The notes under the pieces were generated by a model. It ran no database searches, had not been told where the DNA came from, and was given only the letters and a program-made list of their open reading frames with translations. The translations under genes and the position numbers were made by a program. Shown here in pieces: positions 7,961-56,745 of a stretch of 64,000 nucleotides of DNA. Numbering within the stretch: the first letter of the stretch is position 1; each line of letters begins with the position of its first letter. Source of the DNA: a bacterium (GTDB lineage: Bacteria > Zhuqueibacterota > Zhuqueibacteria > Zhuqueibacterales > Zhuqueibacteraceae); contig JBIOXB010000063.1 of assembly GCA_044869275.1 (NCBI GenBank), positions 15,303 through 79,302 on the forward strand, written 5' to 3'.

Positions 7961-8043
7961 GGTATTCTTTCCATCTTATGCAGCGTTTTAAGGAAGAGCA
8001 GCAATGGACTGTATTTCGTGAAGATTGTCGCTCGCACGGCAGC

Positions 8044-35266: not shown

Positions 35267-35391
35267 CCCAAAACCTTGTTATGCCATGCTGGAAACATCC
35301 CGGGAGATTCAGTATCAGCTATAGCAACAGGAACTGTACTGGATTCAACCAAGATCCCTGCCGGACGACAAGCCCGGGTTGGGCCAGGCTT

Positions 35392-37332: not shown

Positions 37333-37584
37333 AAGCGCTACCCCGTTTGGGTTGGTTCTGCTTGCCTCTTATAAATGTGACTGCCACGAAGGTGGGAATC
37401 TCCTCGCCCCTGCGACGAAGCCGGGAAGTTTCCGCATTCGCAGGAATACCATATGAATGAATCTCCACGTCGATTTTAAACTACATATTTTTCCCGCTCC
37501 GAGCAATTGTAAATTTTTGTAGTGCGTGTTCCAGAATTCTCTTGCAGGAGCGGCTAAATTTATGCGATTTTGGGCGACGATTAT

Positions 37585-37695
37585 CTTGACAATGTTAAGT
37601 TAAAATCGCGTCCTCACAATTTGTCATCCCGAAATTTCGGGATCTTCCCTGGGTTTGTGTGCAAGCCTCATGAGAAGAGTCCTACGGAATGACAT
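37585..37695 (+). repeat. Copy 1 of a ~110-bp structured intergenic element (TTGACAA leader, then nested hairpins).
   Basis: cttgacaatgttaagttaaaatcgcgtcctcacaatttgtcatcccgaaatttcgggatcttccct...cggaatgacatg. It contains the perfect palindrome ATCCCGAAATTTCGGGAT at the position where copies 2 and 3 have GATGCCGTAGGCATC and GATGCTGTAAGCATC. Confidence 0.6.
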
Positions 37696-37815
37696 GCGCT
37701 GGGATGCGCTGACGAGACTGGCCGCACGCTCTAAACATGAGACCGAATAACACGCATGCAACTTCGCAGAATGGCGTGCGTACAGATTGGCTGACACTTG
37801 CACGGGAGGAAAAAC

Positions 37816-38091
37816 ATGTTGGAATTGATCGCGCTCTTTGTAGTCATCACGCTGGCGTACGTGGCGCTCAAAATGCTGCTGCTCATTTTCAAGGTGGGCT
37901 TTTGGGCATTGACGCTGCCGTTGCAGGTTTTGCTGGGTGTGGTCGCGGCGCTCGTCGCCGTGGTCCTGATCCTGCCGCTGGCATTGATGGCGGGATTGTT
38001 CGGGCTGGTGCTGGCACCCCTGGCCCTGCTTTTGCCGTTGTTCCCTATTCTCTTGATTGCCGGCGGGCTCTATTTGCTGCTGAAATCATGA
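37816..38091 (+). CDS. Small (91 aa) highly hydrophobic membrane protein with 3 predicted helices, heading STPK cassette 1.
   Basis: GGGAGG RBS 6 nt upstream of the ATG. MLELIALFVVITLAYVALKMLLLIFKVGFWALTLPLQVLLGVVAALVAVVLILPLALMAGLF.... Confidence 0.45.
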   Translation: MLELIALFVVITLAYVALKMLLLIFKVGFWALTLPLQVLLGVVAALVAVVLILPLALMAGLFGLVLAPLALLLPLFPILLIAGGLYLLLKS

Positions 38092-38316
38092 TTGCGATCC
38101 GGCCGGGGTGATGCTTGACATTTCTGAGAAAAATCTGTAACATTCGCCTGTCAGGATTACGCAAGAGGGCCGGACACCTCCTACCTAACTATCGCATAAA
38201 CTCGATTCCACTTTTTTCATCGTCGGCCGGGGGCCGTAACTGTCCTTTCTCACTGGACCCGGATCAAGCCCGGCGACGCCTGAGGTCTCGACCAGACACA
38301 ACAATGGGGCAGGATC

Positions 38317-41238
38317 ATGATCGGCCAGACGATTTCACATTACCAAATCATCGAAAAGCTCGGCCAGGGCGGCATGGGAAAGGTGTATAAAGCCTTCGAC
38401 ACCAAGCTCATCCGCACTGTCGCACTCAAGTTTCTGCCCGAGGAGGTGACCCGCGAGCCAGAGTCTATCGATCGCTTCATTACCGAAGCGCAAGCCGCCT
38501 CTGCGCTGGATCATGCCAATATCTGCGCCATTCACGAGATCAACGAAACCGAAGACGGGCAGATGTACATTGTGATGGCCTGCTATGAGGGCGAGACGCT
38601 CCAGCAGAAAGTCAGGAGCGGACTCCCATCGTTTGAAAGCGCGATCGAAATAGCTCTGCAAATTGCCCGCGGGCTGGAACGGGCACACGAGGCCGGCATT
38701 ATTCATCGCGACATCAAGCCGTCGAATATCATCATCACCAAGCGTGGCGAGGTCAAGATCATTGATTTCGGCCTGGCCAAGCTGACCATGGGGCAATCGC
38801 GCTTGACCAAGAGTGGCAACATGCCGGGCACACTGGCCTATATGTCCCCGGAACAGGTGCAGGGACAGCCGGTTGATTATCGCACGGATCTCTGGTCGCT
38901 GGGGGTGATCATGCACGAAATGCTGACCGGGCAATTGCCGTTCCGCGGCGAGAATGAGGCCGCCGTCGTCTATGCCATCGTCAACGAACCATTGCAGCCG
39001 ATCACGCATTTGCGCGAAGATATTCCCGTGGAATGGGCGAACCTCATTGGCAAGTGCCTGGAAAAGGATTTGTCGCTGCGCTACCTCGGCGCCGGCGAAG
39101 TCATTGCCGATGTGCTCCGGCTGAAAAGGCGGGCGGAAAAGCACGAAGGGGCGGAGCGAGGCAAAGAAAGCCGTACGCTGTCTGCCATCATGTTCACCGA
39201 CATGGTGGGTTACAGCGCACTCACCCAAAAAAACGAAGAGCTGGCGCTCGCGCTTCTCGACGAACACCGGCGGCTATTGCGGCCGTTGTTTCACGAGCAC
39301 GGCGGAAAAGAAATCGAAGCCGTCGGCGACGCTTTTTTTGTGGAATTTGCCAGCGCTTTGCAGGCCACGCGCTGCGCTGTCGGCATTCAAAGAAAATTAT
39401 TTGAGCGCAATCGCGAGGCCTCCGCCGACCGGCGCATCAAGCTTCGTATCGGCCTGCATATTGGTGACGTGGTGCACACCGGCAAGCACGTGCACGGTGA
39501 CGGCGTCAACATCGCCGCCCGCCTGGAGCCACTGGCGGCCCCAGGTGGAATTTGTCTCTCTCAAGATGTGGTGCGGCAAATTCAGAACAAAATCGGGCTG
39601 CCGCTGCGCAAACTGGGACGTGGCGAGTTGAAGAACATCGAGACGCCGCTGGAGGTTTACCGCATCGTTTTGCCCTGGGAGCGGAAACGGGCGCCTTTGC
39701 TTGAAAAGCTCAGCTTTGTTTTGCAACAGCGCAGGGCCTATGTGTATCGCTTCACCGCCATGGTGCTCGTCGCTGTCCTTCTGCCCGTGGCTGTTTATTT
39801 GGAATGGGGCCCCAAAACAGATTCACCTTCTCCCGACCTGAAACGGATCGCCGTGCTGCCTCTGACCAACATTAGCTCCGACCCGCACGATGAATACTTT
39901 GCGGAGGGCATGACCGAGGAGCTGATTGCCACGCTCTCGCGCGTCGGCCAATTTCGAGTGATCGCCCGCAATTCGGTGATGCGATACAAAGCGAGCAGCA
40001 AAACCACGGCAGAAATCGGGGCAGAGTTGCAAGTGGGAACGGTATTGACGGGCAGCGTGCGCAAATCCGGCAACTCTTTGCGCATTGCCGTGCAGCTCGT
40101 GGAAGCGCGCCGGCAGGAGCCTTTGTGGTCGCAGCAATATGACCGCGAATTCCAAGACATCTTTGCCATTCAAAGTGACATTGCCCGAAGCGTCGTGGAA
40201 GCCTTGCGGGTGAGGTTGGTTGACGATGAAGAGCTGCGTCTCGCAAGGCGGTCGCCGCGCAACATGGAAGCCTACACCCTCTACTTGCGCGGGCTTTATC
40301 ACTGGAACAAGCGAACGGCGAGCGACATCAAAAAGGGAATGGATTATTTCCATCAAGCGCTGGCAAAAGATTCAACCTATGCCCAGCCGTATGCCGGCTT
40401 GGCCGATTCTTACACGGTATTGGGAACGGTCGAATATGGCGAATTGCCGGCGGCGCAAGCGATGCTGCAAGCCAGGGAGGCGGCAGAGAAGGCGCTGGCA
40501 TTGGACCCGCAATGCGCCGAAGCACACGCCGCACGCGCGAACCTGTTTTATTCGTATGAATGGGATTGGCAGAATGCCGAGCGCGAATTCACGCGTGCCC
40601 TCGATCTGAATCCCAATTACGCGATCGCCCACCATTGGTATGCGCACTATTTATGCTCGCAGGGTCGGCTCAAGGAAGCCATGTTAGAGATCAGACACGC
40701 CCAAGAATTGGACCCGCTCTCCTTGATCATCAACACGGCAGTGGGAATGGTCTTCTATTACCAGCGCCAGCCCGAGCTGGCACTGGCGCAATTGCACAAA
40801 ACTCTGGAATTGGACTCCAGCTTCGCCGCCGCACTGTTGCAATTGGGAGTGGTGCACGTATATCAGCACCAGGCGGAAGAAGCCATGGCGGCATATCAAA
40901 GAGCCATAAATCTGATTGGCGCCAACCCCATCTCACTGAGTTTGCTGGCGCATGCCCAGGGCGTGTTCGGACGGCGCGCAGAGGCGAACAAGATTCTCAG
41001 TGAGTTTCGTAAACCTTCGATGCGCCGCTATGTTTCGGCTTCAGATATGGCGCTCGTTTATTTGGGATTGGGCGACAAAGATCAAGTTTTCGTCTGGCTG
41101 GATAAGGCGTGCGTCGAGCGTTCAAATTATCTCATTTATCTCAATGTGGAACCGTTGGTTGACAGCCTGCGTGAAGATCCGCGCTTCGCTGCTCTGTTGC
41201 AGAGGGTGGGAGTGCCTCGTTTGGTCAAATCATTGTGA
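38317..41238 (+). CDS. Multidomain Ser/Thr protein kinase fused to a class III adenylate/guanylate cyclase domain, a transmembrane helix, a TolB-N-like domain and C-terminal TPR repeats.
   Basis: Kinase motifs: GQGGMGKVYKA, HRDIKPSNI, DFG, SPE. Cyclase motifs: FTDMVGYSALT, VGDAFFVEF, RIGLHIGDV, GDGVNIAARLE. TM: MVLVAVLLPVAVYL. TolB-N-like: IAVLPLTNISSDPHDEYFAEGMTEELI. An upstream TTGACA-17-TAACAT promoter lies at ~38116. Confidence 0.85.
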   Translation: MIGQTISHYQIIEKLGQGGMGKVYKAFDTKLIRTVALKFLPEEVTREPESIDRFITEAQAASALDHANICAIHEINETEDGQMYIVMACYEGETLQQKVRSGLPSFESAIEIALQIARGLERAHEAGIIHRDIKPSNIIITKRGEVKIIDFGLAKLTMGQSRLTKSGNMPGTLAYMSPEQVQGQPVDYRTDLWSLGVIMHEMLTGQLPFRGENEAAVVYAIVNEPLQPITHLREDIPVEWANLIGKCLEKDLSLRYLGAGEVIADVLRLKRRAEKHEGAERGKESRTLSAIMFTDMVGYSALTQKNEELALALLDEHRRLLRPLFHEHGGKEIEAVGDAFFVEFASALQATRCAVGIQRKLFERNREASADRRIKLRIGLHIGDVVHTGKHVHGDGVNIAARLEPLAAPGGICLSQDVVRQIQNKIGLPLRKLGRGELKNIETPLEVYRIVLPWERKRAPLLEKLSFVLQQRRAYVYRFTAMVLVAVLLPVAVYLEWGPKTDSPSPDLKRIAVLPLTNISSDPHDEYFAEGMTEELIATLSRVGQFRVIARNSVMRYKASSKTTAEIGAELQVGTVLTGSVRKSGNSLRIAVQLVEARRQEPLWSQQYDREFQDIFAIQSDIARSVVEALRVRLVDDEELRLARRSPRNMEAYTLYLRGLYHWNKRTASDIKKGMDYFHQALAKDSTYAQPYAGLADSYTVLGTVEYGELPAAQAMLQAREAAEKALALDPQCAEAHAARANLFYSYEWDWQNAEREFTRALDLNPNYAIAHHWYAHYLCSQGRLKEAMLEIRHAQELDPLSLIINTAVGMVFYYQRQPELALAQLHKTLELDSSFAAALLQLGVVHVYQHQAEEAMAAYQRAINLIGANPISLSLLAHAQGVFGRRAEANKILSEFRKPSMRRYVSASDMALVYLGLGDKDQVFVWLDKACVERSNYLIYLNVEPLVDSLREDPRFAALLQRVGVPRLVKSL

Positions 41239-41268
41239 CAGGCCTTAATAGAATGCTTCTTGCACGTC

Positions 41269-42777
41269 ATGACTTCTGAACTCGAAAAAATGGAGAGCAT
41301 TTTCGAGCTGGCCGATCTGCTTGGCCGGCAGAATGATTTTCAGGAAATCCTGCGCCTGGTGGCACAGAAGGCAGCGAGCTTGTTGCAAGCCGAAACCGCT
41401 TCGATCATGATGATCAATCCGCAAACCCGGCACACGGTCAAGACGATTCTGCAAGAAGGTGATGGCGTGGAGGATCAGCGTTATCATACGGTGCACACGC
41501 ATGTCGGCGGCTGGGTGATCAAGCAGCAACAGCCTTTTGCCAGTGCCGATCTCAAAACCGATGCACGTTTTGCCAAGAAGCTCTTCGAGCATTCTCCCGT
41601 CGCCGCGGTGCTGGCCGCGCCGTTGCGCAGCGAGGGTGTGGTGCTCGGCGCTTTGATCCTGATGAATGCCGCAGCGGCGGTGCTGGAAACACAGCTGGCG
41701 GCGCTGCAAAAATTCGCCGCCGTGGTCTCGCCATTTTTGCGCAATGTACAAAAGCTGCAGCAGTATTTCGATGCCCCTTTGCCGGAAACCGCATTGTTGT
41801 CGAAATACGAAGCCGCGGGCTTGCTGGGCAAAAGCCGGAAGTACGTCGGAATGCTCAAGGCCATGGAGGCCGCTGCGCGTTGCGAGGTGCGCGTGTTGCT
41901 GGAGGGGCAAAGCGGGACCGGCAAGGAATTGATCGCCAAAGCCATCCATCGTTTCAGCCCGCGCGGCGGCCGGCCTTTTATCGCCATCGATTGCGGCGCG
42001 ATTGCGGAGCATCTGATCGAGAGTGAGCTCTTCGGTCACGTGAAAGGAGCCTTCACCGGCGCCAGCAGTGAGCGCACCGGCTTGCTGGAAGAGGGCCATC
42101 ACGGCACGCTGTTCATGGACGAGATTGCGAATCTTTCCTTGGAGATGCAGGCCAAGTTTATGCGCGTGCTGCAAACCGGCGAAATCCGGCCCGTGGGCGG
42201 AAATAAAACCCGGCTGGTCGACGTGCGTATTATTTCCGCGAGCAGCACCCCGCTGCGAAAATTGGTGGAGGCGCAAAAATTCCGTGAAGATTTGTTTTAT
42301 CGCCTGCACGTGTATCCGGTGCAGGTGCCTGCGCTCGATGAGCGCCAGGAGGATATTCCTCTTCTGGCCAATTATTTTTTGAAGAAATTCGCCGCGCAGC
42401 AGGGCAAGAAAGTGGAAGCCTTTCACGAAGAAATCGCGGAGTTCATGCAACAACGCCACTGGGCCGGCAATGTTCGCGAGTTGGAAAACTTCGTGGAACG
42501 CCTGGTTACCATGGTCACGCCGGAAACCACCGTCTTGGAGCATGCGCATCTGCCCGCCGAGCTGCAAAAAGAAATGAAGAAGTTCGCGGGCGCTTTGCCA
42601 GAGCCGGCGGCCAGCAAATCCCTGAACGAGTTCTTGTCCGAATATGAAGAGCAAGTGCTGCGGCAAGCTTTGCGAGCGCACGGCTGGAATCAATCCAAGA
42701 CCGCACGCGCGTTGAAAATCTCCGAACAAACTTTGCGCTATAAAATGGGGAAGATGGGAATTGCGAGGGGTTCGTAA
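41269..42777 (+). CDS. Sigma-54-dependent transcriptional activator (EBP) with an N-terminal GAF domain instead of a receiver domain, an AAA+ core and a C-terminal Fis-type HTH.
   Basis: GESGTGKE (Walker A), GAFTGA (sigma-54 contact loop), an ESELFGH-type motif, C-terminal QSKTARALKISEQTLRYKM. The N-terminal ~170 aa show a GAF-like pattern. Confidence 0.9.
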   Translation: MTSELEKMESIFELADLLGRQNDFQEILRLVAQKAASLLQAETASIMMINPQTRHTVKTILQEGDGVEDQRYHTVHTHVGGWVIKQQQPFASADLKTDARFAKKLFEHSPVAAVLAAPLRSEGVVLGALILMNAAAAVLETQLAALQKFAAVVSPFLRNVQKLQQYFDAPLPETALLSKYEAAGLLGKSRKYVGMLKAMEAAARCEVRVLLEGQSGTGKELIAKAIHRFSPRGGRPFIAIDCGAIAEHLIESELFGHVKGAFTGASSERTGLLEEGHHGTLFMDEIANLSLEMQAKFMRVLQTGEIRPVGGNKTRLVDVRIISASSTPLRKLVEAQKFREDLFYRLHVYPVQVPALDERQEDIPLLANYFLKKFAAQQGKKVEAFHEEIAEFMQQRHWAGNVRELENFVERLVTMVTPETTVLEHAHLPAELQKEMKKFAGALPEPAASKSLNEFLSEYEEQVLRQALRAHGWNQSKTARALKISEQTLRYKMGKMGIARGS

Positions 42778-43143
42778 AGCAAAGGTTGGTACTGTCATGA
42801 CCAGCCTCATGCAAAAATCCGCGTTTTTTCTGCGAAGCAAACTCCACTAAAAACAGGTCTTCTTTTCTCCGCAAGTTTTTTGCGAACTTCTTTCTTGATT
42901 TACTCACTTTCAACCGAGCTATCCTCTCCCGCTGCTTCGTTGTTCCTGCCGAACTTAAAAGCCTTCAACCCACATCATTCCCCGTGGCATGATCTTCGAA
43001 TGTCATGTTCGCGTGCAACACGATGATCTCAGCGCAATTTCGCTCACAGGTGAGCGGTCCGTCAAATCTCCACGCGAGAGCGTGATAATTTCATCCCATG
43101 CGGGCATGGTCGAATCAATTGCATCACACAGTGCGAGGGCCAG

Positions 43144-44562
43144 ATGGAATGCTATCCCCAAAACTTCGAAACCCAAGCTTGGCAAGCAATCGCTGCTCCA
43201 GAAGCATGGCAAGAAGATCAGCGGACGCGCATGCATCCGGAGCTGGTGACACGCTTACTGCACAATGCCGCACCGCTCTTGCAGTTTGCGGACTGGCGCG
43301 TAACCAAGACCGGTCTGGGTTACGCTGAAACCGAGCTGCCACTCACGGTGAACACGACCAACCAACATGGCACACATCAAGCAGGTTTACTGTTGGCTGC
43401 CGCCGACTACACCGGTGGCGTCGCCATGGGCTCGTTGTTTCACGGTGTTCCGGTGATCGGCGTTCATCCGCAAACGGGTGAATTTGGCGCGGCGCTGTGG
43501 TCGTTTCAAGTCAATATGCGCTGGTTGCGCCCGAGCTGCCACACTTTGATCTGCAAGGCTTCCATAGCAGAAGAAAAGTGCCAGCAAATCGTCGCACGTT
43601 TTTTCGCGGGCAAGCGCATTATCGAGACGATCACGATTCAGATGGAAAACGATGGTGTGCCTGTCGCGCAAGCTGAATTCACCTACTGGGCGCGTGATGC
43701 CCGCCTGCTCAAAGAGGAAGCTTACCATGAAGAGAAAATTCACGTGCTCTACGATCACAAGATCAAATCCTCGGCGCTTTTGATCGCCGCTTTGCGCGCC
43801 ATGGAACAAGAAAAGCCCGCGCCTGAGCGGCTTTTTCACGATGCGCTTTCCCCCCAAATAATCGATGATCAGGCGCGGGTGCTGGCGAAGAGATTCTGCC
43901 AGCGCTTGCCACAGTTGCAATCACTCGTGGCTCTGCGCACGCAACACCTCGACACCTGTTTGCAGTCATTTCATGCCAGCGGCGGGCGGCAAGCCTTGCT
44001 GCTGGGGGCGGGTCTGGACTTGCGACCATTGCGTTTGCAGCTACGGGGGGTGAAGTGGTATGAATTGGATTTGCCCGCGATGCTTGCGCTGCGCGAGAAG
44101 CATCTCCACAGACTCGGCCTTGCCAGCCTGCCCGACCGGCGTCTGGTCGAGATAGACTTGCTCAACCATGACCTGGCACAACGCATGGCGGAGACACCCG
44201 GTTTTGACGCAACCCAGCCAACCTTCGTCATCTGGGAAGGCGGCTCCATGTATTTCAATCGTGCAGACTTCAACAAAATCCTCACCGGCCTTCGGCCATT
44301 GCTGCGGCATGAAAAATCCGAGGTTTGGATGGACTATGTTGACGAGAAGGTGATTGCGGGCATCACCGGCTGTGCGGCGGTCGAAGCGTTCATGGAAGGG
44401 ATGCAATGTTTGGGGGAGCCTTTTATCCATGGTCTCGACCCCGCCGCTCATGGCGCCACAAAACTCGGCCTGGAACTGATTTCCGACGAGCCGGCGGCGC
44501 AATTCGTCAGCACCGACGATCCAATTTATGAACTCTATCGTTTTGCCCGGCTGCGCCGGTGA
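43144..44562 (+). CDS. Fusion of a PaaI-like hotdog-fold thioesterase domain and a class I SAM-dependent O-methyltransferase (LCM/TIGR00027-like).
   Basis: N-terminal NQHGTHQAGLLLAAADYTGGVAMG (hotdog HGG-type motif). C-terminal ALLLGAGLDLRP...VIWEGGSMYF (leucine carboxyl methyltransferase-like SAM fold). The likely true start is MHPEL at 43228. Confidence 0.55.
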   Translation: MECYPQNFETQAWQAIAAPEAWQEDQRTRMHPELVTRLLHNAAPLLQFADWRVTKTGLGYAETELPLTVNTTNQHGTHQAGLLLAAADYTGGVAMGSLFHGVPVIGVHPQTGEFGAALWSFQVNMRWLRPSCHTLICKASIAEEKCQQIVARFFAGKRIIETITIQMENDGVPVAQAEFTYWARDARLLKEEAYHEEKIHVLYDHKIKSSALLIAALRAMEQEKPAPERLFHDALSPQIIDDQARVLAKRFCQRLPQLQSLVALRTQHLDTCLQSFHASGGRQALLLGAGLDLRPLRLQLRGVKWYELDLPAMLALREKHLHRLGLASLPDRRLVEIDLLNHDLAQRMAETPGFDATQPTFVIWEGGSMYFNRADFNKILTGLRPLLRHEKSEVWMDYVDEKVIAGITGCAAVEAFMEGMQCLGEPFIHGLDPAAHGATKLGLELISDEPAAQFVSTDDPIYELYRFARLRR

Positions 44563-44587
44563 TCGACATTCAATCACGGAGACGAAA

Positions 44588-45493
44588 ATGAACAGCGCGA
44601 ACGCCTCACTCACCGGCGCCCCTCCGCCGGAGCCAGTCCAGAAATACAATTGGCGAAATCTCCTATTCGTCGCTCTCTCCCCTCTGGTCGCGATAGCAGG
44701 TCTGCTGCTTTATTTGCCGAAATATGGTGTGCAGCGTGGCGATCTGTACAACTTCTTACTCATGTACGTGTTTACCGGCCTTTCCATTTCCGCCGGTTAT
44801 CATCGCTGCTTTGCGCACCACAGTTATCGCTGTCACACACTTGTAAAGTTGTTCTATCTCCTGTTTGGCGCCGCCGCCTTCCAAAACTCGGTGATCCGCT
44901 GGTCCGCCTATCACCGTCGGCACCATCGTTTCACGGATGAGCAGGAAGATCCTCACAACATCAGAGAAGGATTCTTTTGGGTATACTGGGGGTGGGTGGT
45001 GCATCACGACCAGCCCTCACGAAACCAATTCACAGTGCGCGACCTGGAAAAAGACAAGCTGATCATGTGGCAGCATCAATATTACCTGCCGATCGCTCTC
45101 CTCATGGGCTTGGTGTTGCCAGCGTTGCTCGGTGCAGTGCTAAGCAATGCGCTGGGCGGTTTGCTGTGGGGTGGCGTGCTGCGCACTGTGATTTCACAAC
45201 ACGCCACTTTTCTGATCAATTCGGCCTCGCACTGCTTTGGCACACAACCTTATTCGAAAAAAGACTCCTCACGTGATTGCTGGTGGCTGATGTTCGTCTC
45301 TTTTGGCGACAGCAAGCATAATTTCCACCACACCTTTGCGGGCGACTATCGCAACGGCTTGAAATGGTATGAATGGGATCCTTCCAAATGGTTCATCCGT
45401 GGTTTGAGTATGCTGGCCTTGACTTCGCATCTGCATCGCACACCCGCTGATCGCATCGCCCGGGCGCGGAAGCGGATTGAGGAAGGAAGATAA
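44588..45493 (+). CDS. Membrane acyl-CoA/acyl-lipid fatty acid desaturase (delta-9-like).
   Basis: Three histidine boxes: HRCFAHH, HRRHHRF, HNFHHTF. Multiple transmembrane segments. Confidence 0.85.
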   Translation: MNSANASLTGAPPPEPVQKYNWRNLLFVALSPLVAIAGLLLYLPKYGVQRGDLYNFLLMYVFTGLSISAGYHRCFAHHSYRCHTLVKLFYLLFGAAAFQNSVIRWSAYHRRHHRFTDEQEDPHNIREGFFWVYWGWVVHHDQPSRNQFTVRDLEKDKLIMWQHQYYLPIALLMGLVLPALLGAVLSNALGGLLWGGVLRTVISQHATFLINSASHCFGTQPYSKKDSSRDCWWLMFVSFGDSKHNFHHTFAGDYRNGLKWYEWDPSKWFIRGLSMLALTSHLHRTPADRIARARKRIEEGR

Positions 45494-45532
45494 CCGATGC
45501 CCTGCAACCTTGACAAGCAAGAGAATGGCGTG

Positions 45533-46645: not shown

Positions 46646-46661
46646 CCTCAGGAGGTTGTCT

Positions 46662-47888
46662 ATGAAGTTCAAACTGTTCACCCTCAATCTGGTCCTTTTG
46701 TTCTTTCTGCAAATGGGCTGCAACAAGGACCTGCCGCTTTCACCGGATTTCAACGCGATGCAGGAATCGCAAGATTTCGAATCCCAGGACCTGCTGTCCG
46801 ATCAAGTTGCCGTGGGGAACCTCACCGTCATGACGCGCAACATTTACGTCGGCACCAACGTCGATTTGGTTTTGGGGGCGCAAAGCCCGGAAGAGGTGCC
46901 GGTGTTGGTGGCGCAGGCGTTTCAAACGCTGCTCGCCACCGACTTTCGTGAACGCGCGCAGGCGCTCGCCGACGAAATTAAACAGAATCGCCCCCATCTC
47001 ATCGGCTTGCAGGAGGTCTCGACCATCCGCACGCAATCGCCGGGTGACGCAGTGATCGGCGGTACCATCCCTGCCCAAAACGTGCTGTTTGATTACCTGG
47101 CCATCCTGCTTGAGGCTTTGCGCGCACGCGGCCTGAATTATCGCGTCGCCGGCATTATCGCCAATGCCGACGTCGAGGTGCCGATGCTGGTGGATCCCAG
47201 TACCATGGCCTTCGACGACGTCCGCCTCAGCGACTACGACGTGGTGCTCGCGCGGCATGACGTCAGCGTTTCAGACGTAATCCAGGCCAATTATCAAACC
47301 ATGCTCACGGTGCCATCTTTGGGCGCGCAAATTCCCCGCGGCTTTGTGGCCGTGACGGCCAGCGTCGGCAGCAATCGCATCCGCTTTGTCAATACTCACC
47401 TCGAACCGGCCTCGATTCCGGAATTGCTGCCGATTCAACTGGCTCAGGCGCAAGAGCTGGCTGCCGCGCTGCAAAATGAACGTCTGCCTGTGGTTTTGGT
47501 GGGCGACCTGAACACGCAAGCGATCACCGGCGCCACGTATCAATTTCTTGCCACGCAAGGCTATGTCGACGTCTGGACGCAAAAAAGGAATCGTGATGAA
47601 GGCGAGGGCAACACCTGCTGTCACGCTGCCGACTTGCGCAACACCACGGTGCACCTCGACCAGCGCATCGACTTGATTCTGGCGAAAAACAGCACGGAGG
47701 ACGATGATCGCGCGCTGCAGGACGGCGACGATCGCTTCTTCAAAGGCGTAGTGGCGAGAGTGGTGGGCGACGAGCTGCGCGATCGCACGCCTTCCGGCCT
47801 GTGGCCCTCGGACCACGCCGGAGTGGTGGCGCGCTTTCGCACGAATGAAGCACACGACGAGGTTCTGGCGATGACCACGGCGGAATAG
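46662..47888 (+). CDS. Endonuclease/exonuclease/phosphatase (EEP) family lipoprotein.
   Basis: Lipobox LQMGC after the signal peptide. EEP motifs LIGLQEV, VVLVGDLN, WPSDHAGVVARF. GGAGG RBS upstream. Confidence 0.75.
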   Translation: MKFKLFTLNLVLLFFLQMGCNKDLPLSPDFNAMQESQDFESQDLLSDQVAVGNLTVMTRNIYVGTNVDLVLGAQSPEEVPVLVAQAFQTLLATDFRERAQALADEIKQNRPHLIGLQEVSTIRTQSPGDAVIGGTIPAQNVLFDYLAILLEALRARGLNYRVAGIIANADVEVPMLVDPSTMAFDDVRLSDYDVVLARHDVSVSDVIQANYQTMLTVPSLGAQIPRGFVAVTASVGSNRIRFVNTHLEPASIPELLPIQLAQAQELAAALQNERLPVVLVGDLNTQAITGATYQFLATQGYVDVWTQKRNRDEGEGNTCCHAADLRNTTVHLDQRIDLILAKNSTEDDDRALQDGDDRFFKGVVARVVGDELRDRTPSGLWPSDHAGVVARFRTNEAHDEVLAMTTAE

Positions 47889-48024
47889 AGTGGCTTTTCT
47901 TTCACCTCTCGCCGCGCTGTTGCCCCGGGGGAAGCTTCATGAGGCAACAGCGCGGCCTTTCATCAAACCGCGGAATTTGCTTCAACCGGACAAGACAGGA
48001 TTTCGAAACGCAGGAAGCCCGATC

Positions 48025-48648
48025 ATGGCGAAAAACACTTCACTCCCTTCGACCACAAGCAGCGCCCAGGTTGCGGACCTATTTGCGCGAAAAATTTCGC
48101 GCGCCGATTTTCTCAAGCGATTGTTTCTGCTCTCCGGCGCCGCCTGGACGGCTTGCACACCGCTCCGTATCGCGTTGAAGACTTATCCCGACCGCTTCGA
48201 TGCCGATCACGAGCTGAGAGAAAAACTGTTACAGGCGTTTGTGGCGGCCGTGATTCCGGGCGTTCCTCTCGACGCCACACATAGCACGCGTATGCTCACC
48301 GACGATTTTTATCCATTTCATTCCTATTGCGGCTTTTTTACGGCAGATCTGGCGCAAAGAAGTATGAAGCTTTATAGCCATGATCGTTTTGACCAGCTTT
48401 CAATCGAGCAACGCACACAAGTCATCCAGCATGGATTGCAGGCGGACGCCACCACTGCCCGACTGTATCAAGCCGCGATCTACATGACGCAACTTTCGTT
48501 CTATGCAAGCATTTATGACGACAAAGCTGGCTGCACTCTGATTGATTTTCACGGCACGAACGCAGGCTTTCCCGCGGCAGAAGTGTGTTATACGAATAGA
48601 GAGATGCCGTTAGCGCAAGAGGCAACAAGCGACGGCAACCCTCCGTGA
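48025..48648 (+). CDS. Gluconate 2-dehydrogenase subunit-3-like small protein with a twin-arginine signal.
   Basis: SRADFLKRLFLLSGAAWTA (Tat motif S/T-R-x-x-F-L-K). ~207 aa. Confidence 0.65.
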   Translation: MAKNTSLPSTTSSAQVADLFARKISRADFLKRLFLLSGAAWTACTPLRIALKTYPDRFDADHELREKLLQAFVAAVIPGVPLDATHSTRMLTDDFYPFHSYCGFFTADLAQRSMKLYSHDRFDQLSIEQRTQVIQHGLQADATTARLYQAAIYMTQLSFYASIYDDKAGCTLIDFHGTNAGFPAAEVCYTNREMPLAQEATSDGNPP

Positions 48649-48692
48649 CCCCTGGAGGTCTCAGATTCTTGTAACTTCAGGTACATATTAAA

Positions 48693-48915
48693 GGCAAAAC
48701 TATTCGGGGCAAAACAATTAAACACAAAAGAAACTTTGAATAGTTTTACCATTAATAGTTTTGCCATTTGGGGAAAACACCTGATCGTCACAATTTCTCT
48801 AAAACATAGGAAGTTTGAAATGAACAGTGATTTACGACTAACGATTTGCGATTTCGGATGTTGATGTATCCTGCGTAAATCGACAATCGTAAATCGGCAA
48901 TCGTAAATCAACGGC
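48693..48915. repeat. AT-rich 285-bp spacer with dyad and tandem repeats: GGCAAAACTATT / AATAGTTTTGCC inverted pair, and 3 tandem 14-mers CGTAAATC(G/A)(A/G)C(A/G)(A/G)(T/C) with an inverted copy upstream.
   Basis: cgtaaatcgacaat | cgtaaatcggcaat | cgtaaatcaacgg at 48874-48914. gatttacg (the reverse complement) at 48830-48837. ggcaaaactatt at 48693 vs aatagttttgcc at 48763. Confidence 0.6.
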
Positions 48916-48933
48916 ATTGCACGAGAGGCCATC

Positions 48934-50487
48934 ATGAGGACGCTCAAAACCGAAGTACTCGTCATCGGCAGCGGCTTCGGCGCGGCAGCGCCCGCCCTGC
49001 GTTTGAGCCAGGCAGGTTTTCAGGTGCTGATGCTCGAAAAGGGCAGAAATATTGTTCCTCAGAATGATTTCAAACAGTCACAAGACCCGAAATATCTCCT
49101 GCAATATCTCAAAGGCATATCCAGCGCCACGGTTGGTTTTACCTATGCTGAAGGGCTCGGAGGAGGTTCGGGATTTTATGAAATGGTTTCGTTGCGCGCC
49201 CCCAGTGTCGCGTTCGAACAGCAGGACGAGCATGGCCTCCTATGGCCAGGCGGGATTGCGCGCCAGGGTCTGGAGGCTTACTACGATCTGGCGGAGCAAA
49301 TGCTGAATGTCGAACAGATCGCCGTTGACGAAATCCCAAAATCCGGCGTCGTGTTTTCTTTGTTGATGAAGAATCTCGGCTACTCTTGCGATCGTGCGCG
49401 CTATGCGGTAAAGGGCTGTGTCGGCAGTGGCTTCTGTATTTCGGGATGCATTTTTGGCGCGAAACAGTCCCTGCACTACAACTATTTGCCGCAAGCGCAA
49501 CGCGCCGGTATGGAGATTCTCACTGATACTGAGGCATTGAACATTCGTGCACTCGGTAACGATCATAAAGCCACACGCGCCTACCGGCATATGGCCGCGC
49601 TGCCTTATCGCTATGCAGTGCATTGCCGTAGTGACCAGCGCCGCGAACAGTTTGTCGTGCATGCCAAGCTGGTGATTCTGGGCGGTGGCACCGTGGGCAC
49701 CGCCAAGCTGTTGCTCAACTCGCAGGAACATCTGCCGTTGCTCAGCATGCACGTGGGTAAAAACATTACCACCAACGGCAGCGTTAAGGTCGCTGCCCTG
49801 CTGCCGGAAGGATTCATCGCAGGCGATATGTTGAGCGGCAGGTCCCATCCCGGCATGATCAGCTATGAGTTTTTGGAACCTATGGGTCTCACGATTTCGT
49901 GCGCCAAGCCTTTGCCGCTGCAATTGCTCACGGGCGCGCGCATCATGCTCGAGGGCGACCCGCGCCAGCCGGCGTATTGGGGAGAAGCGAACGTGGCATT
50001 GATGAAGCTCTATCGCCGCCGCATGGTCATTCTCTATGCCCTGGGCCTGACGCCGCCGCGAGCCGAGATCCGGCGCAACGGTTCGTCTGATTTCGAGGTT
50101 CATCTCGATCTCGATCATGATCTGCGCGGCTATCATCGGCGCACCAAGGGCCTCCTGCAATCGATCTTGTTGCACAATGGCTGCAAGCTGCTCAATGATC
50201 GTCCCCTCGATCGCGAAGGTCGAGAGTATGATGATCTGCATTTTTCCACCACGCACATGACCGGTTCCTGCCGCATGGCTGATCATAAACGGCACGGAGT
50301 GGTGGACGCCCACGGCGAGGTTTTTGACTACCCCGGCTTATTCGTCACCGACGGCGCCGCCATTCCGACTTCACTGGCGGTGAATTCGAGCCTGACCATT
50401 CTCGCCAATGCCGAGCGCATTGCCGCGCACTTAGTGAGGTGGTATAAATGCGAGGGGAGCAAGGCCTCTGCCCGCGTGGCAGAATAA
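48934..50487 (+). CDS. GMC-family FAD-dependent oxidoreductase (dehydrogenase flavoprotein subunit).
   Basis: N-terminal VLVIGSGFGAAAPALRLSQAGFQVLMLEKG (FAD-binding GxGxxG). C-terminal GMC region with catalytic His (HMTGSCRMADH, VFDYPGLFVTDGAAIPTS). Confidence 0.85.
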   Translation: MRTLKTEVLVIGSGFGAAAPALRLSQAGFQVLMLEKGRNIVPQNDFKQSQDPKYLLQYLKGISSATVGFTYAEGLGGGSGFYEMVSLRAPSVAFEQQDEHGLLWPGGIARQGLEAYYDLAEQMLNVEQIAVDEIPKSGVVFSLLMKNLGYSCDRARYAVKGCVGSGFCISGCIFGAKQSLHYNYLPQAQRAGMEILTDTEALNIRALGNDHKATRAYRHMAALPYRYAVHCRSDQRREQFVVHAKLVILGGGTVGTAKLLLNSQEHLPLLSMHVGKNITTNGSVKVAALLPEGFIAGDMLSGRSHPGMISYEFLEPMGLTISCAKPLPLQLLTGARIMLEGDPRQPAYWGEANVALMKLYRRRMVILYALGLTPPRAEIRRNGSSDFEVHLDLDHDLRGYHRRTKGLLQSILLHNGCKLLNDRPLDREGREYDDLHFSTTHMTGSCRMADHKRHGVVDAHGEVFDYPGLFVTDGAAIPTSLAVNSSLTILANAERIAAHLVRWYKCEGSKASARVAE

Positions 50488-50523
50488 ATGCACCCGCGGC
50501 AGTTCATGTCTGTGATTACGGGA

Positions 50524-50632
50524 TTGTCAACTTGACAACGCAATGTTAAAGCCGCACCTCCTCAACTTGTCATGCCGTAGGCATCTTCCCTAGTTTTCGC
50601 GCAGCTTTTCGGGAAGATTCATACAGCATGAC
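50524..50632 (+). repeat. Copy 2 of the structured intergenic element.
   Basis: attgtcaacttgacaacgcaatgttaaagccgcacctcctcaacttgtcatgccgtaggcatcttccctagttttcgcgcagcttttcgggaagattcatacagcatgacc. Confidence 0.6.
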
Positions 50633-50712
50633 CAACAAAAGGAGCGCACCAAAACCAACGTAGTACTGCCAAGCCAGTAATACTCATTCAGAACCACGCG
50701 TGGAGAAACAAA

Positions 50713-51477
50713 ATGCGACCCCAAATTCATCACAGGGCTATGCTGCTCTTGCTAGGAGTTTTGCCTCTGCAAGTCGATCTCGCGCCGCAGGATAGTGGCA
50801 ACACCACCGTTCAGCTCTACGGCGGGCTCGGACAATATGCTTTGGTCAACCGCGGCTGCGAAGGCCAAGTGCTCAGCAAGCATGCCATTCCATTTCAGGA
50901 ATTGAGCGCCGGGGTTGAGCACAAAACTGCCTCGCCTGTGCGTCTGGGTATCAGAAGCAGCTATATTCTTGACAAAAAGGAAACGTTTTCCGGTGAAAGT
51001 TACTATGATCCCTCACGCCAGGCGTATTTCTCACGGACCGAATTCGTTGCTCGGGAGAATCTCACGATCAATCCCTATCTCAATTTGGAGTGGAAGCCCA
51101 TCGGCATCGGCGGCGGGTACTTCTGGTCGCGTTCTCCTCTTACTGCAGGCGAGAATTCCGAGGATGTAGACTCACCCCTCAGTGCATATCTTCGTTTGGG
51201 AAGCCGGCGCGCGCTCTATTTCAGCTCGTCTTTTCTGCACCATATTCCAGTTTATACCGGCGGTTACTTCCAGCTCGGATTGGGCTCCGGCAAGAATCCC
51301 AACTTCGATTGGTGGCTGGGATGGGGATTTGCCGGTCCGTATGACGGACCCGATATTGCGCTCTTCAAATCTGATATTCGATTACAAAGGCATTTCACGC
51401 TTAATGTGCTCGGACGCGCGGGCTTTACCGAAGGCATCTCGGAAAGCGCCATTGGCATCGGGTTGACATATCGGTGA
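50713..51477 (+). CDS. Secreted hypothetical protein, possibly an outer-membrane beta-barrel.
   Basis: Signal-peptide-like N-terminus. Alternating hydrophobic, Gly/Tyr-rich C-terminal half ending ...GIGLTYR. No family recognised. Confidence 0.4.
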   Translation: MRPQIHHRAMLLLLGVLPLQVDLAPQDSGNTTVQLYGGLGQYALVNRGCEGQVLSKHAIPFQELSAGVEHKTASPVRLGIRSSYILDKKETFSGESYYDPSRQAYFSRTEFVARENLTINPYLNLEWKPIGIGGGYFWSRSPLTAGENSEDVDSPLSAYLRLGSRRALYFSSSFLHHIPVYTGGYFQLGLGSGKNPNFDWWLGWGFAGPYDGPDIALFKSDIRLQRHFTLNVLGRAGFTEGISESAIGIGLTYR

Positions 51478-51648
51478 GAATCTCGATATCCAGCGGATAG
51501 AGGGCACATGAATACCCAGAACTCATAGTTGTTCAGCTGTAAACGGATTAAGCGGATTGAGCAGATGATGGTTTGGGGACGAATCCTTGATTATCCGTTT
51601 AATCCGCTCAATCCGCTTACTAAGACAAAAGCTAAAAAGAGTACGCAA

Positions 51649-52146
51649 ATGAGAACAACAGGACTTTCATCATTGCCATTACTTCTCGTTCTCATGCTGA
51701 GACTTGAAGTTGCTGCGCAGGATTTGTCAAATGTCGCACCCGGCGATCTGATTCGCGTCGCCATTCTCAAAGACCCACATCATAAGAAGACTGGCATTTG
51801 TGATTCTCTGCACAGCGACGCAATCTACATGACGCTGGAAAACTCTGGAAAGCACGGCAGAGTACCTCTCGCCACAATCGCCAGCCTGGAGGTCTGCGTG
51901 GGAACGAAACAAAAAGCTTGGGCCGGGGCGGGAGTTGGGCTCTTAATCGGGACATTGGCAGGAGGCGTCATTGGCGCTGTGGTCGCGAGTGCGTCCAATG
52001 ATCCATATGCAGGTCTTGCCATCCCCGCAGGGTTGATTATAGGAGCGCCGTCAGGATTTCTGGTGGGTGCGGTCGCCGGCTCGCTGATCAAGAGCAAGCA
52101 ATGGGTTGAAGTACCGCTGACGACGGGCCGCAGAGGCAAAAAGTGA
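51649..52146 (+). CDS. Secreted protein with a glycine-zipper membrane segment.
   Basis: Signal peptide MRTTGLSSLPLLLVLMLRLEVAAQ. GAGVGLLIGTLAGGVIGAVVASA...GLIIGAPSGFLVGAVAGS (GxxxG repeats). Confidence 0.4.
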   Translation: MRTTGLSSLPLLLVLMLRLEVAAQDLSNVAPGDLIRVAILKDPHHKKTGICDSLHSDAIYMTLENSGKHGRVPLATIASLEVCVGTKQKAWAGAGVGLLIGTLAGGVIGAVVASASNDPYAGLAIPAGLIIGAPSGFLVGAVAGSLIKSKQWVEVPLTTGRRGKK

Positions 52147-52467
52147 AATTCAAAATCAATCACATTCAAGAATTGCGCGCCGGGATTGGGCACGGAATCG
52201 CCTCGAGGTTGCGGCGGGGTATCAGAAGCGGCGATGTTCATGACAAAGAGCAAGTGTCTACGGGCGAGAATCGGCGCGCTTGACATTCTCCTCTAAAAGC
52301 TGCTATATTTACCTGTGAGGAACCTGCAGTCAAGTGGTTTTTTTCCCCTTCCTTCCCGCAACGACTCAGTTTTATTTTGCTTGTTATAGACAGCCAGAGC
52401 CGGCCTCGTCGCCAGCTTCAGCAAGTTTCTGAACTGCAATAGCTATTTCTATTTTTACGGAAGCGCC

Positions 52468-54687
52468 ATGATCGGCCAAACCATTTCACATTACAGAATT
52501 TTGGAAGAGCTAGGCCGTGGCGGCATGGGCGTGGTGTACAAAGCCCTCGATACCAGGCTCAACCGCACCGTTGCGCTCAAATTTCTCCCGCCGGATTTAA
52601 CGCGCGATCAGGAAGCCATTGATCGTTTTATCAACGAGGCGCAAGCGGCTTCGGCGCTCGATCACACGAATATCTGCACCATTTACGAGATCAACGAGAC
52701 GGAAGTTGGGGACATGTTCATTTGCATGGCTCACTATGCCGGTGAAACGCTGCAACAAAAAGTGGCCAATGGCCGGTTGTCAGTGGCCAGTGCAATTGGC
52801 ATTGCCTTGCAGGCGGCCCAAGGCTTGGAGAGAGCGCATGAGGCCGGCATCACGCATCGCGATATCAAGCCTTCCAACCTCGTCATCACTTCGCGCGGCG
52901 AGGTCAAGATCATTGATTTCGGTCTGGTCAAGCTGGCCGAACCTTCCCGTTCAACCAAAGCTTCGGGGACCGTGGCTTATATGTCGCCGGAGCAGGTACA
53001 AGGCAAACCGGTGGATCAGCGCACGGACATTTGGTCACTCGGCGTTGTGCTCTATGAAATGCTCACCGGACGATTGCCCTTCCTCGGCGAAAGCGAGCAA
53101 GTGGTGATGTATGCCATTGTCCATGAAGACGCCGGCCCGATCCCGGTGGCATCGGGGGGCAGCGGCGTGCCCATGGCATTGGAACAAATCGTCAACACCG
53201 CCATGGCAAAGAATCCCGACGAACGCTACCAGCATGTGGAGGAGATGATTGCCGCCCTGCGCGCGCTCAAGCACAAGCTCGAATCCGGGCAGTTCAACGC
53301 AGCTCAAGCTGCCATCGCGGTGTTGCCTTTTGTAGATCTGAGCCCGCAAAAAGATCAAGAGTACTTTTGTGACGGCATGACCGAGGAACTCATCGCCGCC
53401 TTGGCGAAGATCGAAGGCTGGCGGGTGGTTTCAAAAACCTCGGCATTTGCGTGCAAAGGGAAAGAACAAGATCTCCGCAGGGTCGGTGAGTTGCTCGGCG
53501 TCAAATATGTTCTTGAAGGCAGCGTGCGCAAGGCCGGTGATAGGCTGCGTATCGCAACGCAGCTTACCAACGTCGCCGACGGCTTTCCGCTTTGGTCGGA
53601 GCTTTATGATCGCCAGCTGCACGACGTGTTCGCCATTCAGGATGATATCGCCAAGGCGATTGTCAACAAGCTGAGGCCGGCGGGAGAGCTGGCGCCCCGG
53701 CAGGTGGTGCGTTACACGCAAAGCCCTGCCGTTTACAATTTGTATTTACAGGGGCGCTTTCACTTGAACAAGCGCACTGAAGCCGGTCTGCAAAAAGGCG
53801 TAGCCTTTTGCGAGCAAGCCATTGCTCTGGAGCCGGCCTATGCTCCGGCGTACGCGGGCCTGGCGGACGGTTTTGCCTTACTCGGCTTTCAGGGCTTTGT
53901 GGCGCCCAAAGAAACGATACCCAAAGCCAAAGCCGCAGCCGAAAAGGCGCTGGCCATTGACGAGTCTCTGGCCGAGGCGCATACCTCGCTCGGGTGCATT
54001 CGGGCCGTGTATGATTGGGATTGGGATGCATCCGCCCACGAATTTGAGCGGGCTATCGCCCTCAATCCCAACTCTGCAATGGCACATTATTGGTATGCCG
54101 TGTGGTATTTGTTGCTCACCGGCCAGTTCGATCTGTGTTCCACTGAAATCAAAAAAGCGCAAGAGCTGGATCCGTTGTCCATGGTTTTGCGCGCGGGCAT
54201 TGGTTGGCAGCTTTACTTTGCGCGGCAGTTCGAGCAGGCGGCGCAGGCACTCGAGCGCGCTTTGGAAATGGATGAATACTACGTTTTTGCCCGTGACCTG
54301 CTCGGCCAGGTCTACGCGCAGCTCGGCAGGTATCAGCAGGCTATCACTGAGCTTGAACACGCCGTCGCTCTTTCCCGCGGCTGCGCGCTGAGCCTGCGCG
54401 CGCTGGGCCATGCTTATGGCCTTGCCGGCAAACGCGCGGAAGCGCAGCACGTGCTCGACGAATTGCTGGTGCGCGGACAGCGCAGCTATGTCTCGTCGTA
54501 CGATATTGCGCTGGTTTATGCCGGCATGGGAGACAAAGATCAGGCTCTCACCTGGTTGGAAAAGGCCTACGGGGAGCACAACGGTTGGCTGGGCTTTCTC
54601 AACGTGGAGCCGCGGCTCGACAATTTGCGCGAGGAGGCGAGATTCGCGGTGCTGCTCAGAAACGTGGGATTGCATGAGTTTCTATGA
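52468..54687 (+). CDS. Ser/Thr protein kinase with a TolB-N-like domain and C-terminal TPR repeats. Paralog of 38317..41238 but lacking the cyclase domain.
   Basis: Kinase motifs GRGGMGVVYKA, HRDIKPSNL, DFG. TolB-N-like IAVLPFVDLSPQKDQEYFCDGMTEELIAAL. TPR block. The N-terminus MIGQTISHY[QR]I[IL]E[KE]LG[QR]GGMG is near-identical to the paralog. A TTGACA-18-TATATT promoter lies at 52280-52309. Confidence 0.85.
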   Translation: MIGQTISHYRILEELGRGGMGVVYKALDTRLNRTVALKFLPPDLTRDQEAIDRFINEAQAASALDHTNICTIYEINETEVGDMFICMAHYAGETLQQKVANGRLSVASAIGIALQAAQGLERAHEAGITHRDIKPSNLVITSRGEVKIIDFGLVKLAEPSRSTKASGTVAYMSPEQVQGKPVDQRTDIWSLGVVLYEMLTGRLPFLGESEQVVMYAIVHEDAGPIPVASGGSGVPMALEQIVNTAMAKNPDERYQHVEEMIAALRALKHKLESGQFNAAQAAIAVLPFVDLSPQKDQEYFCDGMTEELIAALAKIEGWRVVSKTSAFACKGKEQDLRRVGELLGVKYVLEGSVRKAGDRLRIATQLTNVADGFPLWSELYDRQLHDVFAIQDDIAKAIVNKLRPAGELAPRQVVRYTQSPAVYNLYLQGRFHLNKRTEAGLQKGVAFCEQAIALEPAYAPAYAGLADGFALLGFQGFVAPKETIPKAKAAAEKALAIDESLAEAHTSLGCIRAVYDWDWDASAHEFERAIALNPNSAMAHYWYAVWYLLLTGQFDLCSTEIKKAQELDPLSMVLRAGIGWQLYFARQFEQAAQALERALEMDEYYVFARDLLGQVYAQLGRYQQAITELEHAVALSRGCALSLRALGHAYGLAGKRAEAQHVLDELLVRGQRSYVSSYDIALVYAGMGDKDQALTWLEKAYGEHNGWLGFLNVEPRLDNLREEARFAVLLRNVGLHEFL

Positions 54688-54805
54688 ATATTTGACTCTT
54701 GATGAGGCGGCGATGGTCAAGCCCAATTGGAGGATGGATTCCTCCATCATGGTTGCTGGTTGAGCGGATAGGGCGTTGTTTTTCCGGTCGCGATTCACGA
54801 GATTT

Positions 54806-54923
54806 GAGTCATTGACTATCTTAACACTGATAAGCTAAAATCTCGCCATCTCAATCTGTCATGCTGTAAGCATCTTCCCCAGGTTGCGTGCAGGCATCTT
54901 GGGAAGATTCCTGCGGAATGACA
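54806..54923 (+). repeat. Copy 3 of the structured intergenic element, sitting between STPK2 and its GAF-sigma-54 activator.
   Basis: cattgactatcttaacactgataagctaaaatctcgccatctcaatctgtcatgctgtaagcatcttccccaggttgcgtgcaggcatcttgggaagattcctgcggaatgaca. Confidence 0.6.
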
Positions 54924-55107
54924 AATAATAGGGGTTTGTGAGGCCAACTTAAGATTGTCAAACTACGAAGCGTTGAGAAAAGTTCGTGCTGGCACTGCAG
55001 GCTTTCGCATGCTGCAAAGAGACAGATAACTGTATCGGCGGGTCAAGGGATTTCGCTCAACAATCCAAGGATCCCTCGATCCATTTATCCCTATCCACGT
55101 CATTGCC

Positions 55108-56697: not shown

Positions 56698-56745
56698 TTG
56701 GATTACTGGATTATGGTATTGTTGGCGGTGTTTAGGGGTGTTATT

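Follow-up and report, generated by a model that had tools for sequence, protein, structure and literature searches.

Mobile intergenic repeats of a Zhuqueibacterota bacterium, probably centred on inverted pairs of Ssn-related hairpins

The Ssn proteins, first described in 2025, are single-domain GIY-YIG proteins of ~94 aa (CDD cd10448) whose genes are flanked by hairpin repeats, the Ssn-related motifs (SRMs) (Chenal et al. 2025, PMC11893778). In Neisseria the SRM is the NTS, CGTCATTCCCGCGMAVGCGGGAATCYRG, which forms part of the classical dRS3 repeat; Ssn proteins bind and cut beside the hairpin in single-stranded DNA (ssDNA) only, being inactive on double-stranded DNA and on RNA, and NTS repeats flanking a gene reduce its transformation rate (PMC11893778). 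We have analysed a stretch of 64,000 nt (hereafter the window) from a bacterium of the family Zhuqueibacteraceae, phylum Zhuqueibacterota (contig JBIOXB010000063.1 of assembly GCA_044869275.1, positions 15,303–79,302), that holds three plus-strand copies of a structured intergenic repeat, here numbered copies 1, 2 and 3. We put at about 0.72 the probability that these copies are ~144-bp mobile DNA repeats centred on an inverted pair of SRM hairpins read by an Ssn-type GIY-YIG nuclease, with no dedicated role for the serine/threonine (Ser/Thr) kinase and sigma-54 activator genes near which they lie.

The three copies, which an initial annotation had picked out from the letters of the window, are refound by nhmmer with a profile of all three at 37573–37699 (E = 6e-35), 50516–50639 (E = 1e-35) and 54805–54929 (E = 5e-38); their alignment has a mean column identity of 77%, and a gapped 21-base core pattern matches the window three times, as compared to 0.00 expected from 100 shuffles. 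They lie 122 nt (copy 1), 81 nt (copy 2) and 185 nt (copy 3) from the start codon of a downstream plus-strand gene, in agreement with the 80–185 nt first noted. The core of the repeat, 67 nt long, reads TGTC[ATGCY-GNA-RGCAT]CTTCCC, a spacer of ~20 nt, and GGGAAG[ATTCC-NNN-GGAAT]GACA (brackets enclose the small hairpins), and the whole unit is a palindrome of ~144 bp without an open reading frame (ORF). The element had been described as ~110 bp; copies 2 and 3 run to ~144 bp with their decayed terminal inverted repeats included, and the description had missed the hairpin of the right side (hairpin C, ATTCC-NNN-GGAAT), which mirrors hairpin A on the left. Its outer pair TGTCAT/ATGACA is present, as is its hairpin B (ATCTTCCC-N20/21-GGGAAGAT). 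The compensatory changes that it had seen in hairpin A are likewise real (ATGCC..GGCAT in copy 2, ATGCT..AGCAT in copy 3 and ATCCC..GGGAT in copy 1), though the stem is one of 5 bp (ATGCY/RGCAT) and the G/C that had been added to it is unpaired.

The core can be read as two half-sites, each TGTC-AT[NNN-loop-NNN]AT-CTTCCC, that face each other over the ~20-nt spacer. Every half-site has TGTCAT upstream and ATCTTC downstream, non-palindromic flanks that give it an orientation, and on paper the whole core would fold into a perfect four-way junction. Readings as a tRNA-like element, a ribozyme, an integron attC site or an IS200/IS605 end were dropped on account of this anatomy: no nucleotide is left unpaired at the junction, the loops measure 3 nt, RYYYAAC/GTTRRRY is absent, and the flanking 4-mers are variable yet match within each copy. 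Rfam returns no match at the gathering threshold for the whole window, and at the E-value threshold the best match, to copy 3, has E = 3.2.

The covariation first seen in three copies holds with more of them. In 35 distinct copies from the window and related genomes, the three-hairpin structure has 97.1% of cells paired and five pairs changed on both sides, values that none of 500 shuffles reaches. A single long hairpin has 85.3% of cells paired in the same copies, with covariation no better than that of shuffles, and we have therefore ruled it out as the conserved structure. Among 150 aligned metagenome matches, nine pairs are changed on both sides (116 such cells), in an alignment that was fitted to the model structure and that most sites entered on both strands, so that the cell counts are not independent. 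In these matches the covariation concentrates in both small hairpins at positions 3 and 5 of the stem (for example UA 104, CG 30 and GC 11 at position 3, and UA 125 and CG 16 at position 5), and the outer stem and the CTTCCC/GGGAAG stem show almost no variation, several of their invariant positions having been fixed by the search patterns. The flanks GTCAT and ATCTTCCC are invariant, and stem positions 3 and 5 vary while pairing is kept.

This half-site and the SRM share a common signature, namely (C/T)GTCAT, a stem beginning with AT, a loop, a stem ending with AT, and then C. Copy 3 has GTCATTCC..GGAATC, as does the NTS, and its right arm reads TGTCATTCCGCAGGAATCTTC on the reverse strand. Both repeats are short hairpin-forming inverted repeats (here with stems of 5–9 bp that covary at positions 3 and 5), and the orienting SRM flanks, HGTCWY upstream and RNCYNB downstream, are present here. 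Moreover, like SRMs, these are multi-copy intergenic repeats that in relatives flank a single-domain GIY-YIG gene of ~95 aa on both sides, and the associated protein has homologues among GIY-YIG proteins with pattern-matching SRMs beside their genes. The differences lie in the stems, 5 bp as compared to 7–9 bp; in the arrangement, which here is a tight inverted doublet with a ~20-nt spacer inside a 144-bp unit that has terminal inverted repeats and target-site duplications; and in the host, which here belongs to the Fibrobacterota–Chlorobiota–Bacteroidota (FCB) group (Zhuqueibacterota/KSB1/CLD3-like). The main text of PMC11893778 describes neither the tight inverted doublet, nor 5-bp stems, nor an enclosing unit that bears terminal repeats and target-site duplications, nor an FCB-group lineage.

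The link to a GIY-YIG nuclease comes from a metagenome scan with a half-core pattern, which found the core at at least 120 loci. On one short contig (L073), tandem core units lie on both sides of a 96-aa ORF whose product is a single GIY-YIG domain (PF01541, residues 5–80, E = 2e-15). The loci fetched by means of the core hold five GIY-YIG genes, four of them with cores on both sides within 200 nt. Because such loci had been chosen for holding a core, we ran a counter-test from the protein side, in which homologues were taken from the protein database (1493 at E < 1e-5, mostly on short contigs) and their genomic contexts were fetched and searched with the core model. The core adjoins the gene in all seven contexts and lies on both sides of it in five (Zhuqueibacter L160, the CLD3 genome L161/162, the JGI contig L163/164, L170/171 and L172); of the other two, the Adhaeribacter context (L165), with a weak score, has a core adjoining the gene only upstream, and the Spirosoma plasmid (L168) has a core upstream alone. 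Tandem arrays are frequent in these contexts, and array periods are 88 nt in L073, 105 nt in L087 and 131 nt in L160. Such gene-adjacent tandem arrays of hairpin repeats with short spacers recall the neisserial intergenic mosaic elements, in which dRS3 repeats separate RS elements (PMC1797815), although the array unit here is a hairpin doublet, and the window has dispersed single units only.

The L073 protein also leads back to recognized SRMs. A GIY-YIG protein encoded on a Rhizobium plasmid shares 49% identity with it (E = 6e-12), and the gene of that protein has SRMs of the published pattern on either side, in inverted orientation; another, encoded on a Sphingobium plasmid, shares 42% identity (the E-values of the two homologues range from 6e-12 to 9e-8), and its gene has a match to the SRM pattern upstream and a near-identical hairpin downstream. 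Numerous GIY-YIG homologues come from contigs that are very short, or that break off ~70 nt from the gene (L170, L171). In Candidatus Zhuqueibacter pondensis, a reverse-transcriptase gene (RVT_1; L160 1433–2554) lies directly upstream of the core array and GIY-YIG gene, and another core is at 1333–1418.

The copies are a mobile DNA repeat that resembles a MITE (miniature inverted-repeat transposable element) or a REPIN. When one genome per species was scanned, the core appeared at 38 loci, in a few uncultured FCB-group genomes: the metagenome-assembled genomes (MAGs) M3-S_metawrap_bin.56 (hereafter M3-S) and K_2_bin.52, Candidatus Zhuqueibacter pondensis, and two Calditrichia MAGs; a single Stenotrophomonas match is probably due to chance. 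The related MAG M3-S, whose genes are 76–86% identical at the nucleotide level to those of the window organism, carries ~18 copies. Its units measure 143–144 bp and end in an 18-bp terminal inverted repeat, CTTGACAATGTTAAGTTA, that is perfect at both ends in five copies. Both ends are present in 15 copies, one of which loses its right flank to a contig end; among the 14 readable copies, the flanking 4-mers (YTAR) are identical on the two sides in eight and differ by one base in five. Wherever the identical 4-mers are non-palindromic (six of six), they are direct repeats, with none of the inverted type. Near-identical subfamily members (L014, L021 and L027) bear different 4-mers, and we therefore take these to be target-site duplications rather than element sequence. 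A 4-bp YTAR duplication is of the kind that IS5-group elements make. The window itself holds an empty site, the intergenic stretch 7973–8040, whose M3-S orthologue (L028 7569–7712) contains a full element flanked by TTAA/TTAA; copy 2 is shared with M3-S at an orthologous site (L031 5076–5193), where the flanking gene is 86% identical. Several M3-S insertions lie within runs of short tandem heptamers, for example AATCACT/TAGTGAT and GTGTAAC (L033 5650–5700 and 5850–5904, L016 2210–2260 and 2405–2460, and L014 4848–4905); these runs are a different type of intergenic repeat and may offer the YTAR target.

The initial annotation had argued against a mobile element and had tied the element to a shared cis-regulatory module for a kinase/activator regulon. 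The target-site duplications, terminal inverted repeats and empty site speak against the first argument, and the random orientation with target-site duplications that it had itself named as the mark of a MITE is what M3-S displays: all copies are intergenic (by crude ORF calls), with eight in the same orientation as the downstream gene and nine in the opposite one. The regulon fares no better, since only 2 of 17 M3-S copies are near sigma-54 activator genes, both at the 3′ end, with no copy upstream of an activator or near a kinase. In their length of ~144 bp, lack of an ORF, 18-bp terminal inverted repeats, short target-site duplication, intergenic position and presence/absence polymorphism at orthologous sites, the units are like known bacterial MITEs (Correia elements, and those derived from IS5-type elements). 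They are unlike them in that the centre is most conserved, not the ends, in that shells with unrelated ends share this centre, and in that no autonomous partner was found in the window or the 1.2 Mb of fetched loci, where a search for an autonomous insertion sequence (IS) with the 18-bp terminal repeat matched only small units.

Conservation of the core without its ends recurs from genome to genome, units with unrelated ends sharing the same centre. The K_2_bin.52 units have the ends CTAAATTGAGCGATT, and the Zhuqueibacter units, of ~330 nt, the ends GTCATTGCGAG...CTCGCAATGAC. A second MITE-like shell round the hairpin doublet (L103, L153, L157, L081, L117, L079 and L052, from metagenome Ga0247727 and others) has ends of ~27 nt, TATACTGCTTCAGGGTTAATTTGTAAT... 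(TATACTG...), and at least three of its copies bear a TA duplication. A conserved centre with unrelated ends is unusual for MITEs, and pointed to a function of the centre. An identical stretch with a Zhuqueibacter-type unit occurs in two MAGs (L004, JBOHQX010000148; L008, JBOHQZ010000967), which could reflect very recent transfer, shared contamination or mis-binning.

In the explanation that we favor, modelled on the Neisseria NTS and SsnA, each half-site would fold into its hairpin while the DNA is single-stranded, as in replication, repair or DNA uptake, and a small single-domain GIY-YIG nuclease would bind the hairpin and cut adjacent to it; a candidate ssDNA target of the cognate protein (e.g. 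that of L160 or L073) is TGTCATGCTGTAAGCATCTTCCC. In reading its target the nuclease would rely on both the invariant flanks and the stem's shape, and this would account for flanks that stay invariant beside stems that covary, with no RNA needed, and the presence of two conserved half-sites in inverted orientation would explain the outer stem and the CTTCCC/GGGAAG stem. The 144-bp unit would move by cut-and-paste or by copying, with the 4-bp YTAR duplication left behind; a DDE transposase that uses the terminal repeats could be responsible, or else the nuclease system itself. Where the initial annotation had left a choice between a functional RNA and a protein-bound cruciform or operator, a protein-bound DNA hairpin or cruciform fits our best explanation, whereas the RNA is disfavored by the lack of an Rfam match and by the action of the published proteins on ssDNA (PMC11893778).

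Several points weigh against this explanation. The published SRM pattern, HGTCWYN(0-2)YYVSBRHN(0-5)WNVSBRGN(0-2)RNCYNB, has no match in the window, while NTS controls match it; it fails there because the stems are of 5 bp and the pattern needs at least 7. A tblastn search (E < 1e-3) found no GIY-YIG gene in the window or among 18 fetched pieces of the closest MAG, the genomic contexts of two further homologues (P0059 and P0011) are not in that MAG, and a cognate nuclease encoded by the window genome is accordingly an assumption. Among solved structures, the closest to the 96-aa protein are those of UPF0213 proteins (E = 6e-7). Searches of the collections used core-derived patterns, so conservation at the positions forced by those patterns is uninformative. 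Finally, the occurrence of the core in at least two unrelated shells, one with YTAR and the other with TA duplications, fits ordinary transposases that carry the hairpin pair as a passenger.

This last point leads to the rival that the units are ordinary MITEs moved by a DDE transposase, with hairpins that have no protein partner, compensation that arises from template-switch correction of quasi-palindromes at replication, and GIY-YIG genes that are selfish homing-type nucleases landing in repeats. The terminal inverted repeats with their 4-bp YTAR duplication, the empty site in the window, the random orientation, and the second shell with a TA duplication and different terminal repeats round the same core all suit such an origin. 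We nonetheless consider it unlikely: template switching leaves unexplained the invariant GTCAT and ATCTTCCC flanks, which persist across distant lineages and shells while the shells diverge, the half-site resembles the Neisseria NTS, for which Ssn binding and cutting have been shown experimentally (PMC11893778), and the 1.2 Mb of fetched loci yielded no autonomous IS with these terminal repeats. The inverted doublet of small hairpins, the intergenic location, the tandem mosaic arrays and the single small gene flanked by repeats equally recall repetitive extragenic palindromic (REP) and REPIN elements serviced by a REP-associated tyrosine transposase (RAYT, of the IS200/IS605 Y1 type), systems in which the inverted hairpin doublet is likewise the replicating unit, a small nuclease gene is flanked by repeats, and hairpin DNA is recognized. 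Yet the flanked gene here encodes a protein of the GIY-YIG fold, not a Y1 HUH protein, and these units make target-site duplications whereas REPs do not, so that service by a RAYT is scarcely credible. A GIY-YIG counterpart of REPIN/RAYT, in which the inverted SRM doublet is itself a non-autonomous mobile unit serviced by the GIY-YIG nuclease, is a more tentative proposal, which we regard as doubtful. The doublet might then insert into single-stranded hairpin tips, or it might itself give rise to the YTAR duplications; insertion into hairpin tips would account for the exactly central position of the doublet in at least two unrelated palindromic MITE shells. If true, this would be a mechanism of transposition or dissemination not yet described for the Ssn family.

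Two further rivals would give the window copies a local task. The three good copies are all on the plus strand, 81–185 nt upstream of plus-strand genes, and their hairpins covary, as might be expected if the element were an operator or a structured 5′ leader RNA through which the Ser/Thr kinase and sigma-54 activator cassettes are regulated together; three U-G intermediates, with no C-A mismatch, at a covarying pair on the defined strand lean the same way but are too few to be given weight. Against such a role, the same orientation in three of three copies has a 1-in-4 chance if orientation is random, and in M3-S the orientations are split (8 with and 9 against the downstream gene), the neighbouring genes are unrelated, and copies are found at the 3′ end of activator genes (2/17) and never upstream of an activator or kinase gene. 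Both strands, moreover, fold about equally and both score with the covariance model, Rfam has no match, and by eye there is no convincing sigma-54 or sigma-70 promoter downstream, all of which makes a leader or operator highly improbable. Alternatively, and whatever their origin, inserted copies may have been co-opted to stabilise mRNA, to act as roadblocks, or to serve as boundaries of recombination or transformation round the kinase/activator island; a comparable role has been proposed for Neisseria NTS clusters. The confinement of all five copies and relics to 34.3–55.0 kb of the window, the retention of copy 2 at an orthologous site though its flanking gene is only 86% identical, and the lowered transformation of genes flanked by NTS repeats in Neisseria (PMC11893778) speak for co-option; with a very small sample, and with copies 1 and 2 decaying at their ends, we judge it very unlikely, if somewhat less so than a leader or operator.

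Reading the copies as SRM doublets would place SRMs in a poorly known FCB-group lineage, in a form overlooked by the published pattern because of its short stems and tight inverted doublets. Terminal repeats, target-site duplications and an empty site would then be the first evidence that SRM doublets lie in units bearing signatures of transposition, a testable handle on the spread of SRM-type repeats. The relatives supply new candidate nuclease/hairpin pairs from an uncultured phylum for use in ssDNA tools. In annotating genomes, an intergenic repeat that covaries should not be assumed to be RNA, as a protein that reads DNA hairpins gives the same signal.

Within the window, copy 1 (37585–37694, plus strand; covariance model R1, 61.4 bits, E = 1.3e-16) consists of a perfect left terminal inverted repeat at 37585–37602, the left arm, and a 73-nt core at 37622–37694 whose left hairpin, ATCCCGAAATTTCGGGAT, is lengthened; neither its right arm nor its right terminal repeat can still be recognised in a scan for terminal repeats or in alignment to the 144-nt consensus. 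Copy 2 (50531–50674, plus strand; 67.3 bits, E = 2e-18 with the same model) is a full-length unit of 144 bp, with its core at 50568–50633 and with both terminal repeats decayed. Copy 3 (54820–54962, plus strand; 79.4 bits, E = 4e-22) is a full-length unit of 143 bp with its core at 54857–54923, hairpin A at 54861–54873 and hairpin C at 54907–54919; its terminal repeats have 4 and 3 mismatches and its flanking 4-mers are CTAT/CTAC. The covariance model also retrieves a decayed core relic at 34362–34451 (24.5 bits, E = 2.6e-5), intergenic between a NACHT-TPR gene (31595–34327, minus strand) and a methyltransferase gene (34502–35266, minus strand), in which a half-site scan finds the right half-site TGTCATTCTGAAAGAATCTTG intact on the minus strand at 34434–34450. 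A weak match at 35282–35370 (16 bits, E = 0.011), in the gap between the methyltransferase gene and an aconitase-family gene, is possibly a strongly decayed core relic. The model finds none elsewhere in the window. We take the window copies, whose ends are decaying and whose cores are largely intact, to be old and partly decayed insertions.

The left end of copy 2 (50524–50538) adjoins an inverted duplicate of its own first seven bases (TTGTCAA-C-TTGACAA), which looks like the right-end remnant of a neighbouring or earlier insertion; a comparable TTGTCAA/TTGACAA pair is present at 21943–21963. Two promoter candidates were rejected by eye: no −10 box follows the left-end TTGACA at 16–18 nt, and the TGGC..TTGC-like strings downstream of copies 1 and 3 are wrongly spaced for a sigma-54 promoter. 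The only public contig that encodes the second sigma-54 activator, Logan SRR30692717 contig L001 (equivalent to window 54856–64000), begins inside copy 3, the assembly having broken at this repeat. An encapsulin-family gene (Linocin_M18) precedes a 2078-aa ORF with only a weak Peptidase_C70 match (window 57791–58777 and L001 4048–10284).

The gene context agrees with the initial annotation, which had placed copy 1 upstream of the first kinase cassette, copy 2 upstream of a secreted/OMP-like gene and copy 3 upstream of the second activator gene. Two paralogous cassettes are present, at 38317–42777 and 52468–56697, each with a TPR-bearing Ser/Thr kinase gene followed by a GAF-sigma-54 activator gene. 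The paralogy extends to the DNA level, where 38316–42777 and 52467–56697 are 70–76% identical over several blocks, and the first kinase has an adenylate/guanylate cyclase domain that the second is without.

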